DNA from: an uncultured delta proteobacterium | Lineage (GTDB): Bacteria; Desulfobacterota; Binatia; UBA9968 | Direction of reading: 5' to 3' | Assembly (NCBI GenBank): GCA_963816145.1 | Contig: CAWFJP010000005.1 | Location: 256,001-320,000 of the forward strand | DNA length: 64,000 nucleotides | Part shown: positions 27,537 to 33,990 of the stretch, one piece after another | Layout of the letters: each line of letters starts with the position of its first letter | How positions within the stretch are numbered: the first letter of the stretch is position 1 | The notes under the pieces: generated by a model | The model's database searches: none | What the model was told of the DNA's origin: nothing | The model's input: only the letters and a program-made list of their open reading frames with translations | Program-made: the position numbers and the translations under genes

Positions 27537-28613
27537 ATGCTGATTCTTTCCAACGAGGATATCGAAAAGATCCTTCCAGTGGGCGCGTGTCTCGACGTGC
27601 TAGAAGAGGCTTATCGCGATCTTGGTAACGGCCTGGCGGCGACGGTGCCGCGCTATGATGTCTTTAGCCCGACCAAACCTAACGAGTTTTATGAATACAA
27701 AACCATGAGCGGCGTGCTGCCGGGTCGCGGCATTGCCGCGCTGCGGCTCAACTCTAGCGTGGTCAAGTGGTACGAGAAGGCCGGCGGCGTGCGCAAGGAT
27801 AAATTGCCGGTTGCGGGCGGCGATCGCTACGTCGGCTTGATTATGTTGTTCAGCACCGAGACCGGCGAGCCACTGGCAATCTTTCCTGACGGCTACGTGC
27901 AGAAGTTGCGCGTTGCCGGCGCCAGCGCGATTGCGGCGCGTTATCTGGCCCGCAAGAATTCCACCACCATGGCGTTGCTCGGATCGGGTTGGCAGGCGAG
28001 CGCGCACCTGGTCACGATGGCGATGGTCCGAGACTTGAAGCAGGTCCGGGTGTTCAGCCCGACACCGGAGTCGCGCCGCAAGTTCGTCGATGAATGGCGC
28101 GGCAAGGTGAAGGCGGAGCTGATCGAATCTAGCAGCGCCGCCGAAGCGATCAAAGACGCCGACATGGTGATCGCGACGACCAATTCGATCTCGGCCCTGT
28201 TTCCCGGCGAGATTTTACAACCGGGCATGCATGTGTCATGCGTCAAACCTTGCGAGCTCGATGCCGTGACTTATAAGCGGTCTGATCCGTTGATTATTCA
28301 CTGGCACGAAGCCAAACCGTTTCAGATCACCATCGGTGTCGATCCGCAGTCGATTCCCGACGTGGCGGAAGGCTGGCACCATCCGATCACAAGGGAGGAT
28401 TCAGCGATCTGGGATTTGCCGACGATCTCGCAATTGGTCAATGGCCAGCATCCGGGACGAGTAAAAGACGATGCGATCAGCTGTTTTTGCAACAACGTCG
28501 GCCTCGGCCTGCAGTTCGCGGCGGTCGGCAGCGAGGTGCTGGCGCGGGCGCGAGAAGCGCGGGTGGGACGGGAAATTCCCACGGATTGGTTTTTGGAAGA
28601 TGTGCATCCTTAA
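27537..28613 (+). CDS. Ornithine cyclodeaminase/mu-crystallin family protein (paralog 2)
   Basis: TGEPLAIFPD, LLGSGWQA, GLGLQFAAVG, C-terminal GREIPTDWFL. Confidence 0.88.
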   Translation: MLILSNEDIEKILPVGACLDVLEEAYRDLGNGLAATVPRYDVFSPTKPNEFYEYKTMSGVLPGRGIAALRLNSSVVKWYEKAGGVRKDKLPVAGGDRYVGLIMLFSTETGEPLAIFPDGYVQKLRVAGASAIAARYLARKNSTTMALLGSGWQASAHLVTMAMVRDLKQVRVFSPTPESRRKFVDEWRGKVKAELIESSSAAEAIKDADMVIATTNSISALFPGEILQPGMHVSCVKPCELDAVTYKRSDPLIIHWHEAKPFQITIGVDPQSIPDVAEGWHHPITREDSAIWDLPTISQLVNGQHPGRVKDDAISCFCNNVGLGLQFAAVGSEVLARAREARVGREIPTDWFLEDVHP

Positions 28614-28656
28614 AAATTTTCGTTCAAGGTTCAAAAGTTCACTGTTCAAGGTCGGA

Positions 28657-29646
28657 ATGGTGGATTGCGTTGTCGCTGCTCTTTTTATGTGGCTGGCGTT
28701 TTTTGTCTATCCGGTTGCCGCGCAAACGTTCAAGCTCAAGGTCGCTTATCCGACGACGGTGGGGTCGATGGCGGTGGTGTGGGTGGCGAAAGAGGCGAAA
28801 CTATTCGAAAAGCATGGCTTGGAGGTAGAGTTGATTTACGTCGCCGGTAGTTCCCGGGTGGTGCAGGCGATGTTAGCGAAAGATATTCCGATCTCCGAGA
28901 TCGCGATCCCCGCCGTGATCCAAGCCAATCTCGCCGGCGCTGATCTCGTCATGCTCGCCGGGCCGAATCATAAGCCCGGCCAGAAAATCATGGTCAAGCC
29001 GGAGATCAAGCGGAGAGAGGATCTGAAAGGCAAGAAGATCGGCATCACACGCTTTGGCACCTCGGATGATTTTCTCTTGCGCTACGTGCTCGGGCAGTGG
29101 GGTCTGCAGCCTGAACGGGATGTGGCGTTGATCCAGATGGGCGGTTCGCCGGAAATTCTCGCCGGCCTGGCATCGCGCGCCGTCGACGGCGGCATGCTGT
29201 CGTCGCCATTGCATCTGCAAGCCCTGAAATTTGGTTACAGCCTGCTAGCTGACTTGAGCGCCATCGGCGTCGATTATCAGGGCGCCGGCGTGGTGACGAC
29301 CCGGTCGTACCTGCGCGAAGCGCCGGACACGATGCACCGTTATCTGCGCGCTTATATCGAAGGGCTGCATCGTTTCAAAACCGACAAAGCCTTCGCGGCA
29401 AAAGTCATCGGCAAATATTCGCGCATGACGGAGCCGGAGGCTTTGGAAGAAACTTATCAGCACTATGCCGTCAAAGTGATGCCGCGGGTGCCGTACCCGA
29501 CGATCAAAGGCATTCAAATGGTCCTGGATGAGATCGGTACGCGCACACCGAAGGCCAAGAGTCTGTCGCCGGAGAGTTTCATCGACGTGAGCTATCTAAA
29601 AGAATTGGAGCAGGGTGGGTTTATTAAGAAGTTGTATGGCGAGTAA
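28657..29646 (+). CDS. NMT1/SsuA-type ABC substrate-binding protein
   Basis: Signal peptide; LFEKHGLEVEL, DLKGKKIGITRFG, ELEQGGFIKKLY; start approximate. Confidence 0.87.
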   Translation: MVDCVVAALFMWLAFFVYPVAAQTFKLKVAYPTTVGSMAVVWVAKEAKLFEKHGLEVELIYVAGSSRVVQAMLAKDIPISEIAIPAVIQANLAGADLVMLAGPNHKPGQKIMVKPEIKRREDLKGKKIGITRFGTSDDFLLRYVLGQWGLQPERDVALIQMGGSPEILAGLASRAVDGGMLSSPLHLQALKFGYSLLADLSAIGVDYQGAGVVTTRSYLREAPDTMHRYLRAYIEGLHRFKTDKAFAAKVIGKYSRMTEPEALEETYQHYAVKVMPRVPYPTIKGIQMVLDEIGTRTPKAKSLSPESFIDVSYLKELEQGGFIKKLYGE

Positions 29647-29667
29647 CCTATCGGCCCAATGCCCGGC

Positions 29668-29922
29668 TCAACCGCTGGACGGCCACGGCGAGCTCGTCGA
29701 TATGAACGACAATGGCTCGCGCGACAGGCGTAAACCCGTAAAGCAATCCTAGCCGCGGTTCGGACTACTAACGCCAATGAATCGTTTACCCGGTCGAAGT
29801 ATGTCGCATGTGTGACACGAGCAGCAACGGTGCTGGCGAACGAGGGACTGCTGCCGTCGCGGGTAGCGAATCACTATGTGTGTAAGGCGCAATCGACGGC
29901 GTTGATTCAAATTGGACGCTAA
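29668..29922 (+). pseudogene. Degenerate 3' fragment of a lost gene (possibly an alpha/beta-hydrolase-type protein)
   Basis: Two frames join into protein-like text: QPLDGHGELVDMNDNGSRDRRKPVKQS*PRFGLL / NESFTRSKYVACVTRAATVLANEGLLPSRVANHYVCKAQ. Contains an internal stop and a shift; no start. Confidence 0.4.
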
Positions 29923-30097
29923 CGGAGAGCCAAGACATTTGTGCCGGTGGATGATTGAGCGGCGCTAAAGTTTCTTGGAATTCACGAAATTACCAAATGT
30001 TTTGCTTGGTCGACGGACGCGCAACCTTTGCGATCCGTCGATCGCTGCGAGTGCGACTATAAATCAAATTATTTTTTTGCGCCGCTCAATTATTTTA

Positions 30098-30126
30098 TTG
30101 ACAGGAAAAAATCACTTCCGTAAAGT
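30098..30126 (+). promoter_or_regulatory. Strong sigma70-type promoter with upstream A/T tracts
   Basis: TTGACA (30098-30103), 17-nt spacer, TAAAGT (30121-30126); A/T-rich 30061-30097. Confidence 0.8.
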
Positions 30127-30158
30127 AATGGTCAGCAGGGAAAGGAGGTGGTCCAGAC

Positions 30159-30200
30159 ATGATTGATTTAAGTACTGGCTGTGAGGTGGCTGAGACTTAG
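30159..30200 (+). CDS. 13-aa mini-ORF MIDLSTGCEVAET
   Basis: ATG 10 nt after the GGAGG of an exceptionally long SD; TAG at 30198-30200. Confidence 0.5.
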   Translation: MIDLSTGCEVAET

Positions 30201-30267
30201 GCTCTAGGCGGAATCTCTGATGGAGATTCGGGCCTAGAGCCTGGGAATCTCCCTCAGCCACCGCAGT

Positions 30268-30322
30268 GGCCCGCTACACCGGTTGCGCAAGCCGCCGTGT
30301 GTAGCGGGCCTTCTTATTTTTT
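30268..30322. terminator. Hairpin terminator between the small transcript and the convergent HEAT-repeat gene
   Basis: ggcccgctacac / gtgtagcgggcc 12-bp stem followed by ttcttatttttt on the + strand. Confidence 0.7.
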
Positions 30323-31021
30323 CTGCAATATTTTGAGTGCCGCATCGGCGCTCTTTTTGATTTGCTGGTTGCCGCCTATGCTCGCTTCAGTGAGTGCTCG
30401 GAGAAATTCTTGATCCGCGGATCCTAGACTCGCCAAGGTCACGGCGACCGCGTTTTTTACGCGGTCGTCGGTGTCACGCAGATAACTTGCAAGGAGTTTC
30501 TGACGGACCGCGGCATCCACATCGCTTCTTAGCTTAAAACTGGTGACCGCGGCGACGCGCACTGTCGGTTCATCATCGTCCAATGCTTTCAGCATTGCTG
30601 CTCGACTCTCGCCGTCGCTCAAAGCTAAATCGCGCAAGCAATAAAGCGCCATGCGTTTTTGATTGGCACTGCCGCTTATGCATAGTTCAATCAGCAGTGA
30701 GACCACTGCGGGTTCTTGTTGCGCGATGCGCACCAGTAGCAGGCCGTTGGCCCAACGAATATCGGGTTCGCGATGATCGAGGGCGATGAGCAATGTGCGA
30801 AGGACAGCGCCTGAGGGTTGGCTTTGATGGCCGAGGACATAAGCGACCGGCCAATAGTTTCTGTGATCGGGTTCGTTGAGCCGGTGGTTTAGGGTGTCCC
30901 GGAGGCCCGCGGAGGTTTCCCCCAGGGCGATGAGCTTGTCGACGGCGGCGCGGATCGTCGGTTTGTCGGGATGATCGAGGGCAGTGATGAGATCGGCGAT
31001 CTCGCGTGAATCGGTTGCCAA
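30314..31021 (-). CDS. HEAT/PBS-lyase-like repeat protein
   Basis: Repeats of ALDHPDKPTIRAA, ALDHREPDIRW, ALDDDEPTVRVAA, DTDDRVKNA. Confidence 0.8.
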   Translation of the reverse strand: MATDSREIADLITALDHPDKPTIRAAVDKLIALGETSAGLRDTLNHRLNEPDHRNYWPVAYVLGHQSQPSGAVLRTLLIALDHREPDIRWANGLLLVRIAQQEPAVVSLLIELCISGSANQKRMALYCLRDLALSDGESRAAMLKALDDDEPTVRVAAVTSFKLRSDVDAAVRQKLLASYLRDTDDRVKNAVAVTLASLGSADQEFLRALTEASIGGNQQIKKSADAALKILQKK

Positions 31022-31052
31022 GAGCGAACTCCAGCGCGAGCGGGTAGCCGAA

Positions 31053-32246
31053 TTAGATTTCCAAAAACTGCGGACAGTCGGTCAGGTTGCGGTTGCCTTT
31101 GGGCCTAACTACCACGACGTCTTCCAATCGGACGCCGCCGACGCCTAAGTAATAGAGCCCCGGTTCCACGGTGACCACATGGCCGGTGCGCAGGACCGCG
31201 TCGACCGGGGCGATGCGCGGCGGTTCGTGAATGTCCAAGCCCAAACCATGGCCGGTGCCGTGAAAGAAGCCCTGCATGCGGCCGTTGATCCTGCCGGTGG
31301 GAAAGCCCCGGGCGGCGAACATGTTCAAAATATTCTGGTGCACTTCCTTACCATTGACGCCGTCGCGGATCTGGTCGTAGCCGATCCGTTGGCCGGCTTG
31401 CACGGTGGCGTAGATTTGTTTCAATTTTTCCGACGCCCGGCCGCGCACCACGGTGCGGCTCAAATCGCCGAAATAGCCATTGTGTTGCGAGCGCGGGAAA
31501 ATATCGAAGATGATCGAAGTGTTCGCTTTGATCGGGCCGGCGCCTTCATGGTGCGGATCGACGCATTGATTGCCCGACGAGATGATCGTGTGGCTCGGCA
31601 GCCAGCCTTGCGCCATGATCGTCGTATTGACCCCGGTCTTGAGCATCTCGGAAGTCAGCCGCAGACCGTTGAGATAGAGATACCCGTCGCGTTTGGTCTT
31701 GGTCCGTTTGAGCATGCGGATGCCGGCTTCCAAACCGAGACGGGCGATGCGCAGCGATTCGGTGATCTGTTTCACTTCAAGATTGTTCTTGGTCTCGCGC
31801 TGGGGCCAGAAGGGGTCGCGCTTGATCTGCACGCTGTAACCTTTCGCACGCAGTTGGTCTAACAATAGGGCGGAAAAATTTGCCGGCACGATGAGCGAGC
31901 GAATGCCGCGCTCGCGAAAAATCAAATCGACAATGTCGATCATTGCCGCCGGCGCTTTGCCGAGTTTGCGCAGTTTTTTCTGATAGAGCGACAACGACAG
32001 CACCCGGTCGGCGTGAGCCTGCTTCTTGGCGCGGTCGATCTCGAGATCGCTCATGACGATGTGGCGATGGTTCTTGTGCTCAAAGAAAATAAACGGATCG
32101 GGCACGAAGAAGCCGGTGGCGTAAAGCATGTTGGCGTCGCCTTCGCTGGCGGCGTAAAGCAAGATCGCCTGATTCGGTTTAAGCTGGATCGGTTGCAGCA
32201 CCGGCCCGCTCGAGATGTTTTGCGGCTTTGGATTCGCTTCGAGCAT
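31053..32246 (-). CDS. Xaa-Pro aminopeptidase (M24 family)
   Basis: DIFP..GYFGDLSRT, HGTGHGLGLDIHE, VTVEPGLY, GVRLED. Confidence 0.93.
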   Translation of the reverse strand: MLEANPKPQNISSGPVLQPIQLKPNQAILLYAASEGDANMLYATGFFVPDPFIFFEHKNHRHIVMSDLEIDRAKKQAHADRVLSLSLYQKKLRKLGKAPAAMIDIVDLIFRERGIRSLIVPANFSALLLDQLRAKGYSVQIKRDPFWPQRETKNNLEVKQITESLRIARLGLEAGIRMLKRTKTKRDGYLYLNGLRLTSEMLKTGVNTTIMAQGWLPSHTIISSGNQCVDPHHEGAGPIKANTSIIFDIFPRSQHNGYFGDLSRTVVRGRASEKLKQIYATVQAGQRIGYDQIRDGVNGKEVHQNILNMFAARGFPTGRINGRMQGFFHGTGHGLGLDIHEPPRIAPVDAVLRTGHVVTVEPGLYYLGVGGVRLEDVVVVRPKGNRNLTDCPQFLEI

Positions 32247-32439
32247 GATAGTTGTCGCGCCTCGATTCGTCGTGGTTATGATTTTCTTGCGGCTTCATCA
32301 CGCTAACAAGTTGATGCTGGAACTGCAAGTTTTTCCCCGTGAATTCGCGCGATTGAGTTGACAGTCAGACGACTTTTGTTATGATGCCGCCACTCGCTGG
32401 CGAAACTATTTTGCTTTCGCGCCTAAGGAATTTCTCTCG

Positions 32440-33990
32440 ATGACGATAGCCAACAATCTCGACAAGCTCCGCGAACTCAACGACAAGGCCGAAGCCGGCG
32501 GCGGCGCCGAACGGGCGCGCCGGCAGCATGAACAGGGCAAGCTTTTGGCGCGCGAGCGTCTCGACATTCTGCTTGACAGCGGCAGTTTTGTCGAGATCGA
32601 CCGTTTGCGCACGCACCACAGCACCGACTTCGGTCTCGATAAACAAAAATTTTTAGGCGACGCTGTCGTCACCGGCTATGGCGCTATCGACGGACGGCTC
32701 GTCTATGCTTACTCGCAGGACTTCACCGTCTTCGGAGGCAGCTTGAGCCGGGTGGTTGCCGACAAAATCTGCAAGGTCATGGACATGGCGGTGAAGAATG
32801 GCGCACCGCTCATCGGTATCAACGACTCCGGCGGCGCGCGCATTCAAGAAGGTGTCGATAGTCTTGCCGGTTACGGCGATATTTTCCAGCGCAACGTCAT
32901 GGCATCCGGCGTCGTGCCGCAAATCACAGCGATCATGGGACCGTGCGCCGGCGGCGCCGTCTATTCGCCGGCGATCACCGACTTTATCTTTATGTGCAAG
33001 ACGAACAGCTACATGTTCATTACCGGTCCGGACGTGATCAAGACGGTGACCCATGAAGAGGTGACCAAAGAAGATCTGGGCGGTGCGGAAACCCACACGG
33101 GGAAGAGCGGCGTGGCCCATTTCACCGCCAATACGGAAAAGGACTGCTTGCTGATGATCCGTGAGTTGGTCAGCTTTCTGCCCAGCAATAATCAGGAAGA
33201 TCCGCCGTTCCGGCCGACCCATGACGATCCGCTGCGGCGCGACAAGCGGCTCAAAGACATTATCCCCGACAATCCCAACCGTCCCTACGACATGAAAGAG
33301 TTGATCGCCGCGGTGGTGGACGAGGGGTATTTCTACGAGGTTCAACCGGAGTTCGCTCGCAATATCCTCATCGGTTTCGCCCATGTCGGCGGGCGATCCA
33401 TCGGCATTGTCGCTAATCAGCCGAATCACTTGGCCGGCTGTTTGGATATCAACGCTTCGGTGAAGGCGGCGCGCTTCATTCGCTTCTGCGATTGTTTCAA
33501 TATTCCGATCGTCACTTTTGTCGACGTGCCGGGTTTCTTGCCAGGAACCGAGCAGGAATATCACGGGATTATCCGTCATGGCGCGAAGTTACTTTACGCC
33601 TACGCCGAAGCGACTGTGCCCAAGGTTACCATCGTCACGCGTAAAGCCTATGGCGGTGGCTACATCGTCATGGCGAGCAAGCATCTGCGCGGCGATGTCA
33701 ATTTAGTTTATCCCACCGGCGAGATCGCCGTCATGGGTCCGGATGGAGCGATTAACATCGTTTTCCGCGATGCTCTCCTGAAATCGGCCGATACGGCCAG
33801 GACCCGCGACGAGTTGGTGAACAATTATCGCGAAACCTTCGCCAATCCTTTCAAAGCCGCGGAGTCAGGCTACGTCGATGGGATCGTTTACCCCGAAGAG
33901 ACCCGGCCGACATTGATCCGCGCCTTGGAAATGCTTAAGAACAAGCAAGATCACAATCCGCCCAAAAAACATGGGAATATTCCACTTTAA
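32440..33990 (+). CDS. pccB: Acyl-CoA (propionyl-CoA) carboxylase carboxyltransferase subunit
   Basis: [44 protein letters not shown]. Confidence 0.93.

Follow-up and report, generated by a model that had tools for sequence, protein, structure and literature searches.

We report that a short element in the genome of an uncultured delta proteobacterium of the class Binatia (GenBank assembly GCA_963816145.1, contig CAWFJP010000005.1, positions 256,001 to 320,000 of the forward strand) is, by covariance-model match, a member of the small-RNA family Ms_IGR-5 (Rfam RF02471) in a non-actinobacterial genome. The whole stretch of 64,000 nucleotides that was analysed is here called the window, and the element, which occupies 30098-30322 of it, is, as read from its sequence, a self-contained small-RNA gene with its own promoter and terminator. 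It brings together an extended Shine-Dalgarno sequence (SD1), a mini open reading frame (mini-ORF), a second Shine-Dalgarno-like site within this ORF (SD2) and a long-range helix (P1) that has the 3' end of the ORF as one of its strands. Across several phyla the frame of the mini-ORF is conserved while the peptide drifts, and the two sites complementary to the ribosomal RNA are tied to the start and the stop of the ORF. Taking these features together we infer that the RNA is most likely a riboregulator or ribosome-status device that acts through translation.

Assignment to the Ms_IGR-5 family

The only Rfam family matched in the whole window was RF02471 ("Actinobacteria sRNA"), with a score of 46.2 bits, where the gathering score is 45, and an E-value of 3.1e-7 over 64 kb. 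The match is full length, covering positions 1-184 of the 184 model positions without truncation. An initial annotation of this DNA, made from the letters alone, had been unable to assign the element to a known family and had named a match to a described Rfam family as a refutation; with this match the novelty of the family falls, by a margin of 1.2 bits. The order of the parts (SD1, a mini-ORF ending in xEV[A/T]xx, P1, terminator) is the same as in the actinobacterial members, as judged from a 37-sequence alignment across groups, from the read-outs of individual loci and from a tally of layouts. The promoter-proximal extended Shine-Dalgarno sequence, the mini-ORF, the GAGGUGGCUG...CAGYCACC helix and the terminator thus follow each other as they do in the loci of Mycobacterium, Streptomyces, Nocardia and further actinobacteria. 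It should be noted that the Rfam entry differs from what we describe here in that its consensus structure is without the long-range P1 helix, which covaries in our loci, in that the family is treated as non-coding whereas a frame is conserved in our loci, and in that its hosts are labelled actinobacterial whereas the present host is not an actinobacterium.

Ms_IGR-5 was reportedly first found in Mycobacterium smegmatis by Li and colleagues in 2013. In those parts of the later reports that were available, the RF02471 locus is marked as RNA-seq validated in a table for S. lividans, MS_IGR-5 is one of the two among 139 small-RNA transcription units with mapped starts and ends in S. avermitilis that match Rfam, and the homologues of MS_IGR-5 in M. 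abscessus and M. smegmatis are named among the small RNAs with 'significant ribosomal reads'. In the literature available to the searches, no functional study of Ms_IGR-5 was found. Those directed at anti-Shine-Dalgarno sequences, small RNAs and short ORFs likewise returned nothing functional on the family, and the peptide motifs were met in no relevant context in the paper texts searched. A preprint on Rv0810c is, as far as the available part of it goes, unrelated to the family.

Complementarity to the 3' tail of 16S rRNA

The 16S gene of the same genome ends in ...CTGGATCACCTCCTTTCT (in a longer stretch, ...GCGGCTGGATCACCTCCTTTCT), and positions 30139-30156 of the window can pair with the last 18 bases of it in 18 uninterrupted pairs, of which 16 are Watson-Crick and two are G:U. 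When the 8,987 GGAGG sites of the genome were scored in the same register, 18 pairs were reached only here and on the antisense strand of the 16S gene; the next-best GGAGG sites have 15 pairs (three sites) and 14 pairs (one site). The exceptional match to the 16S tail that had been pointed out in the initial annotation is therefore upheld, and with 18 contiguous pairs it is unique in the genome apart from the antisense of the ribosomal DNA. Across loci, SD1 is a 16-18 nt complement to almost all of the single-stranded 3' tail of the 16S rRNA which is kept across phyla; AAGGAGGTG is invariant in the 37-sequence alignment, and the wobble position is either A or G, both of which pair with the U of the rRNA. 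Three other carrier genomes (G193, G194 and G195) gave no match to the 16S-tail pattern, a result that is uninformative since metagenome-assembled genomes (MAGs) are often without rRNA genes.

A second site of this kind lies at the other end of the ORF, where GAGGUGR of the P1 strand is complementary to the anti-Shine-Dalgarno sequence. Its position, 6 nt upstream of the last sense codon, is a normal Shine-Dalgarno spacing for a ribosome with the stop codon in its A site. That a second Shine-Dalgarno-like GAGGTGG lies in the ORF and within a stem had already been noted from the letters, and indeed SD2 overlaps the 5' strand of P1. In mycobacterial loci (e.g., L041, L043, L049, and L059) the variable inner hairpin often bears GGAATCACCTG, which resembles the 16S tail GGATCACCTCC and to which SD1 or SD2 of that RNA could bind by base pairing.

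A conserved frame with a drifting peptide

One layout was found in 103 of 104 loci: GGAGG, a spacer of 5-14 nt, a start codon, an open frame, GAG-GUG, three codons and a stop. The loci of this tally (the window, L002-L030, L152-L201 and L207-L230) were found with covariance models and not with a pattern; L001 and L151, which are the window itself, were dropped, and L202 and L203, which are weak partial matches without a second GAGGTG, were left out. The exception is L200 (G456:C16, Acidobacteriota), where TAT replaces the stop, the frame runs on and the 3' half, with the 3' strand of P1, is missing from the match; this locus appears to be a decayed copy. The 81 distinct ORFs have 11-19 sense codons with a median of 13 and none below 11, and they differ in length by whole codons. 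Start codons are ATG (38), TTG (19), GTG (14), CTG (6), and ATT (4), and stop codons are TAG (70), TAA (6), and TGA (5). In a series of actinobacterial loci (L162-L168, L172, L174, and L179) CTG takes the place of the TTG or GTG start codon of relatives and the codons that follow are kept, as in CTG CAT AAA CC compared to TTG CAT AAA CC, which suggests initiation at CTG in those lineages.

The amino acids behave otherwise than the frame. Glu-Val-[Ala/Thr] is kept across the ORFs, and the residue preceding the Glu is Cys in 44 of the 81, Arg in 25, Ser in seven, Leu in two, and Glu, Lys, and Gly in one each, a variation which means that Cys is not a feature of the family. Glu-Val itself is always encoded by GAG-GUG, and neither GAA nor another GTN codon was ever seen in the matches. 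GAGGTG was present in all 83 anchored unique matches (83/83) and was followed by a stop at +15 nt in 80 of them; of the other three, two were mis-anchored by the script and one, L200, is real. Since selection on a protein would tolerate synonymous codons at such divergence, the fact that GAG-GUG is never replaced by synonymous codons points to selection at the level of the RNA. A crude pooled ratio of nonsynonymous to synonymous change (pN/pS) was 0.77 for codons 2-4 and 1.25 for codon 5 in 47 actinobacterial ORFs of 12 codons, and 1.06 for codons 2-7 in 16 Binatia ORFs, and thus appears to give no sign of selection on the amino acids. The purifying selection on a peptide that is expected of a dual-function small RNA was not seen here (pN/pS 0.77-1.25, Cys unconserved), and the tiny Cys-containing peptide, one of the products considered in the initial annotation, is weakened by the same counts.

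Two other interpretations of the ORF were tried and rejected. A precursor of PqqA type, or of another ribosomally synthesized and post-translationally modified peptide, had been suggested by ...IDL..G.EV..., in which the residues are unconserved, and there is no maturase gene nearby. For a +1 frameshift or a read-through at the stop, the +1 frame closes at once (after ACT-TAG it reads AGG CTC TAG and stops after two codons), and all three stop codons occur among the ORFs.

Helix P1 and the remaining secondary structure

In P1, GGUGR-CUG-NN of the ORF pairs with NN-CAG-YCACC located 60-190 nt downstream. The outer four pairs are nearly invariant in the model-fitted alignment of 85 matches, and hence uninformative, while the fifth pair is GC in 33, AU in 20, GU in nine, CG in two, UA in one and something else in 18 cases; its covariation score is 0.166 compared to 0.098 +/- 0.008 in shuffles and to at most 0.081 with the partner slid. 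The covariance model used in our searches (R1, built from 37 sequences of all groups) was given the five outer pairs of P1 only, and the inner pairs were judged by duplex folding and by permutation of partners, from both of which matches shorter than 110 nt were left out. Each of the 56 distinct pairs of P1 strands folded into a duplex of 8-11 bp, with compensatory versions such as GGUGGUGAC/GUCACCACC, GGUGGUGUC/GACACCACC, GGUGGCG/CGCCACC, and GGUGCCUG/CAGG-C-CACC. With their own partners the inner strands gave a mean of -5.03 kcal/mol compared to -3.93 kcal/mol for cross-pairings, and none of 1000 permutations reached the observed mean; individually, only 31 of 52 inner pairs were better than their own cross mean. 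Judged by these changes in paired strands, P1 is real.

Further structure surrounds this helix. When 30128-30322 (195 nt) was folded it reached -102.2 kcal/mol compared to -69.6 +/- 4.6 kcal/mol in dinucleotide shuffles, none of which was as stable (0/200; z = -7.07). The small hairpin P0 pairs GRUCC with a GGAC-like sequence, with -5.08 kcal/mol for its own partners and -4.28 +/- 0.19 kcal/mol for permuted ones (0/1000 as low). The inner hairpin P2/P3 varies in length and sequence by phylum, and a hairpin is found at that place in each; each of the four groups of loci that were compared (of Actinomycetota, Binatia, Acidobacteriota, and Ignavibacteriales type) has an unpaired (A)AATYC-like motif next to the P1 3' strand on its 5' side; and relatives of all groups have a hairpin in the position of a terminator directly after P1. 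The cross-phylum MAFFT alignment gave no pairs on consensus folding, since its 3' strand lies in different registers in the different clades, with a one-base bulge outside the Actinomycetota, and an ungapped search for the P1 3' strand was too noisy in G+C-rich DNA.

Distribution across phyla

The genome of the window (G000) measures 7.8 Mb in 31 contigs and carries one copy of RF02471. Of 41 genomes of its order, 35 (G000 among them) had a match to the family at E <= 0.01, with 18 of 24 in the family f1, five of five in f2 and 11 of 11 in f3; none of 14 control genomes gave an RF02471 match. Among the 41 genomes it is G000 alone that reaches the Rfam cut-off, so that the Rfam threshold would miss the clade.

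A scan for the exact pattern with one genome per species found at least 120 stretches. The matches listed are mostly from Actinomycetota (Mycobacterium and relatives, Streptomyces, Kitasatospora, Nocardia, Saccharopolyspora, Actinomadura, Nakamurella, and others), and the remaining ones listed are labelled as Candidatus Binatia, Terriglobales, Blastocatellia, Ignavibacteriales, and Leptospira weilii; the elements labelled as Candidatus Binatia are near-identical to those of the relatives of the window. Even samples of whole phyla were then searched with R1 at E <= 0.001, where the E-values are rough, the seed had been chosen by a pattern requiring AAGGAGGTG and TGYGAGGTGRCTG, and the samples had passed strict filters with incomplete genomes included, so that a negative stands for 'not found' and not for absence. 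A match to R1 was obtained in 73 of 151 genomes of Actinomycetota, in 54 of 151 of the phylum to which the Ignavibacteriales genome belongs, in 19 of 151 of Acidobacteriota, in 17 of 151 of Spirochaetota, and in four of 151 of the phylum of G000 itself, these last within its class only. Nearly every positive genome has one copy. Two genomes have two copies each, namely G216 (on C17 and C126) and G555 (on C1 and C4), where either duplication or redundancy of the assembly is possible.

Several of the genomes are flagged as unpublished (G005 with L028, G193 with L037 and L185, G213 with L175, and G196, G243, G277, G283, and G315). The counts for the same order, the Actinomycetota and the Acidobacteriota contain them, and no conclusion rests on them alone; L037 entered alignment A1 and hence R1, and L028, L175, and L185 entered A2 and the layout tallies. 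Two loci carry labels at odds with their surroundings: L070, in a MAG labelled 'Gammaproteobacteria', shares its neighbours with actinobacterial loci, and L135, in a MAG labelled 'Acidiferrales', has the neighbours of Binatia loci and an element near-identical to theirs. On account of these neighbours both were treated as mis-binned, and they are probably mis-binned or mis-labelled. An origin from phages was considered and rejected, as two viral contigs of identical sequence (L205 and L206) are not members of the family: they have a long Shine-Dalgarno sequence, AAGGAGGTGATC, and a GAGGTGACTGAG...CTCACCTCC hairpin, and their short ORF stops before GAGGTG and ends before the hairpin, which we read as a chance combination of a Shine-Dalgarno sequence and a hairpin.

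Layout and genomic context

Direct reading of 29700-30700 found every feature that the initial annotation had described, i.e., the promoter, the Shine-Dalgarno sequence, the ORF, the stems and the terminator, at the coordinates given for it. The features are collected in Table 1.

Table 1. Features of the Ms_IGR-5 element and RNA-library contigs overlapping it or lying next to it (window coordinates).
Feature	Coordinates	Strand	Basis or remark
A/T-rich DNA 5' of the -35 hexamer, possible UP-like element	30061..30097	+	direct reading
Promoter-like site TTGACA-17-TAAAGT	30098..30126	+	TTGACA 30098-30103, TAAAGT 30121-30126; scores 10/12
Match to Rfam RF02471 (Ms_IGR-5), model positions 1-184	30134..30317	+	covariance-model search
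SD1, GGAAAGGAGGTGGTCCAG, complement of the 16S rRNA 3' tail	30139..30156	+	18 contiguous pairs
Anti-16S sequence AAAGGAGGTGGTCCAG	30141-30156	+	direct reading
P0, small hairpin, start codon looped out	30153..30178	+	centroid structure; CCAG 30153-30156 with CTGG 30175-30178
Mini-ORF, ATG, 13 sense codons in total, TAG (30198-30200); reads MIDLSTGCEVAET and stop	30159..30200	+	
SD2, Shine-Dalgarno-like GAGGTGG within the ORF (Glu-Val codons), 6 nt 5' of the last sense codon	30183..30189	+	
P1 5' strand GGTGGCTGAG, partner 30253-30262	30185..30194	+	predicted fold
P2/P3, inner hairpin	30199..30242	+	predicted fold; 30199-30209 with 30232-30242, 30211-30217 with 30223-30229
Internal-loop motif AAUYC (AATCTCC here), adjoining the P1 3' strand on its 5' side	30246..30252	+	unpaired in the minimum free energy structure
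P1 3' strand CTCAGCCACC; CACC end mimics the anti-Shine-Dalgarno sequence	30253..30262	+	predicted fold
Intrinsic terminator, 12-bp G+C-rich stem and T-run to 30322	30268..30322	+	fold and direct reading; 30268-30279 with 30299-30310
RNA-library contigs	29932-30158, 30198-30357, 30183-30401, 30399-30624, 30247-30445		

The promoter-like site was the only one of sigma-70 type in a scan of 29500-31200, for which shuffles give 1.0 +/- 1.0 sites. Over the whole window seven sites scored at least 10/12, and that of the element is level with five others; the best is TTGACA-16-TATGAT at 32358-32385 on the forward strand with 11/12, and the element's promoter is therefore not, contrary to the initial annotation, the closest match to the consensus in the window. 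The 11/12 site stands directly 5' of a carboxyl-transferase ORF (32440-33990). In relatives a TTGACA-17-TAAACT or similar site lies at an equal distance from the element, and those of the same genus are likewise A/T-rich upstream of the -35 hexamer. Each lineage, among them the Leptospira and Ignavibacteriales copies, has its own kind of promoter-like DNA directly 5' of the element, and a hairpin directly 3' of it. The 12-bp terminator stem was not listed by a simple terminator scan, since its loop exceeds the limit of that scan.

The only sizeable ORF downstream is a convergent HEAT-repeat gene on the reverse strand (30314-31021), in agreement with the initial annotation, which had seen no normal gene downstream on the same strand. 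This gene ends within the T-run of the element's terminator, and the arrangement is kept in 38 loci of Binatia type. Clustering of the ORFs within 3 kb of the element found no neighbour common to the four groups of loci; only this comparison across groups was used, because the clustering was otherwise inflated by spurious ORFs that overlap one another where genomes are rich in G+C. Even a Mycobacterium and a Streptomyces locus have different neighbours: in the Mycobacterium locus the element lies 3' of an aminotransferase class IV gene and a GCV_T-like gene, and in the Streptomyces locus it adjoins a pyridoxamine-phosphate oxidase gene and a citrate synthase gene. The lack of a same-strand gene downstream and of a neighbour common to the four groups points to an orphan transcription unit. 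Five short contigs from RNA libraries (160-227 nt, depth 2.6-5.7, from four of six runs) overlap 29900-30700. An abundant RNA of ~180 nt, as proposed in the initial annotation, would find its support in the reports on actinobacterial homologues.

Discussion

How the parts of this RNA may work together can be proposed from its anatomy. SD1 would recruit a ribosome very efficiently, and this ribosome would translate the mini-ORF of 11-19 codons and thereby melt P1. Termination would then place SD2 at Shine-Dalgarno distance from the P site, where SD2 would pair again with the anti-Shine-Dalgarno sequence, leaving the YCACC strand and the AAUYC motif free until the ribosome departs and P1 re-forms. 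The output would be a remodelling of the 3' domain, a tethering of the ribosome, or both. We give about an even chance to this proposal, by which the RNA is a riboregulator operated by translation, and the translating itself, not the peptide, is what functions. A translation-controlled structural switch had been one of the options of the initial annotation, and it is the one that fits best, given that 103 of 104 loci retain the frame with its start and its stop and that the 3' end of the ORF is part of a covarying helix.

Several points weigh against the riboregulator. The predicted 5' end or 3' end lies on none of the five RNA-library contigs (four libraries), and one contig (29932-30158, run X15) starts on the 5' side of the predicted promoter and extends into the element; either transcription continuing from the NMT1-like gene upstream (28471-29646) or DNA carried over into the library may account for it. 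The invariance of GAGGUG is partly built in, R1 having been seeded with sequences that contain GAGGTG; in the Rfam consensus, which is independent, GAGGUG stands in capitals. The relatives compared in P1 and P0 are not independent of each other and the permutation results accordingly overstate the support, while the pN/pS values come from very short stretches in which non-independent pairs were pooled and multiple hits left uncorrected. P0 is not universal, being weak or absent in some lineages. Lastly, a Shine-Dalgarno sequence of excessive length could impede elongation, which would favour an RNA that holds ribosomes back.

Such an RNA, an idea already put forward in the initial annotation, would be a sponge for ribosomes (30S or 70S), in which the SD1 duplex parks subunits on an abundant transcript and the ORF permits their slow release. 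The complementarity of SD1, extreme, unique in the genome and kept across phyla, would be expected of it, as would a promoter that looks strong and, in SD2, a second site for binding the anti-Shine-Dalgarno sequence at Shine-Dalgarno distance from the terminating P site; an ORF of at least 11 sense codons, moreover, sets about one ribosome footprint (~30 nt) between the initiating and the terminating position. A pure sponge, however, needs neither a conserved frame nor a fixed position of the stop, the gene is present in a single copy per genome, and titration of ribosomes would require very high levels of the RNA, so that we consider this explanation unlikely. Slightly less so, and still no better than tentative, is the thought that Ms_IGR-5 is a widespread ribosome-docking RNA which acts on the 16S 3' tail common to all its hosts. 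The two sites that bind the anti-Shine-Dalgarno sequence would here bracket a mini-ORF of about one ribosome footprint or more, SD1 would hold an initiating ribosome and SD2 a terminating one, the two sitting back to back, and YCACC, as the single mimic of the anti-Shine-Dalgarno sequence, would toggle between masking SD2 and release. The RNA would thus serve to park ribosomes, to meter them or to sense them, a counterpart of 6S RNA on the side of translation, and its independence of any host-specific protein would allow it to pass from one phylum to another. That an ORF of at least 11 codons fits an initiating and a terminating ribosome side by side is a lead and not a result.

The remaining explanations account for fewer of the features. 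If the element were an ordinary small-protein gene, a peptide of 11-19 residues ending in x-E-V-[A/T]-x-x would be functional and the hairpins would stabilise or terminate its mRNA; conserved frame, start and stop, the retention of Glu-Val-[Ala/Thr], a very strong Shine-Dalgarno sequence suited to high expression and, in the available part of the report, ribosome footprints on the mycobacterial homologues all agree with this. What makes it improbable is that only Glu-Val is invariant, and this always as GAG-GUG, which argues for selection on the RNA, that the residue before Glu can be C, R, S, L, K, E or G, that pN/pS is about 1 elsewhere in the ORF, that no modifying or partner gene is kept nearby in the loci compared, and that the texts searched hold no relevant context for the peptide motifs. 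The family is catalogued as a small RNA in Rfam, and its conserved, pyrimidine-rich AAUYC(C), unpaired in an internal loop, or another single-stranded stretch, might pair with mRNAs in the classical manner, the ORF being incidental or tuning stability. C-rich loops are used by other actinobacterial small RNAs, e.g., 6C. Base pairing of this kind leaves unexplained the fixed stop, the in-frame start in 103 of 104 loci and the complementarity to the 16S tail, and we regard it as a little more improbable still. Least probable is an orphan leader-peptide attenuator, in which the position of the ribosome would set termination and read-through would be antisense to the HEAT-repeat gene. The short ORF does overlap the first strand of a system of hairpins followed by a terminator, the convergent HEAT-repeat gene is kept in the 38 Binatia-type loci, and a trans-acting attenuator RNA is known in rhizobia (rnTrpL), according to the part of that work available; yet there is no same-strand gene downstream and no conserved neighbour between the groups compared, the 81 unique ORFs contain no run of regulatory codons for one amino acid, and no convincing antiterminator was seen, the GCCAC/GUGGC option removing no more than 3 bp of the 12-bp stem.

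The interpretation with which the analysis began is thus supported in part: the orphan unit, the match to the 16S tail and the idea of a switch stand, the novelty of the family does not, and the Cys peptide is weakened. The family itself is not novel, and the element is a non-actinobacterial member of Ms_IGR-5. Within the literature searched, what appear to be new are the range across phyla, the conserved frame with its drifting peptide, and the tying of rRNA-complementary sites to both the start and the stop of the ORF. Genes so small, so conserved and so widespread are few, and the hint at the partner is unusually explicit, with the longest complement to the 16S tail in the genome and a second rRNA-complementary site fixed to the stop. 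Should ribosome tethering prove true, this would make the RNA a global translation device of a new kind. Should it be merely a highly expressed mini-ORF, it would still be a clean natural example of overlapping constraints from a frame and an RNA structure, and a reason to revise the taxonomic range, the structure and the 'non-coding' label of the Rfam entry.

Among known systems, the frameshift site of prfB (RF2) has an internal Shine-Dalgarno sequence 3 nt from the P-site codon. As in the element described here, a Shine-Dalgarno-like sequence within an ORF lies a few nucleotides 5' of a stop, placed for pairing with the anti-Shine-Dalgarno sequence of the ribosome at that stop; the spacing here is 6 nt, however, and there is neither a slippery codon nor a downstream +1 frame. 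The rnTrpL/peTrpL system of Sinorhizobium resembles the element in having a leader-type mini-ORF with hairpins and a terminator and, in the available part of its description, a function beyond attenuation in cis; it derives from the leader of the trp operon and contains Trp codons, whereas the present element is without regulatory codons or an operon. With the dual-function small RNAs (SgrS/SgrT, RNAIII/hld, and SR1/SR1P, for example) the element would share an independent transcript of small-RNA size that carries a short, translated frame. Those RNAs have a conserved and active peptide, whereas in Ms_IGR-5 the peptide drifts and it is the position of the frame, together with the two sites complementary to the rRNA, that is conserved.

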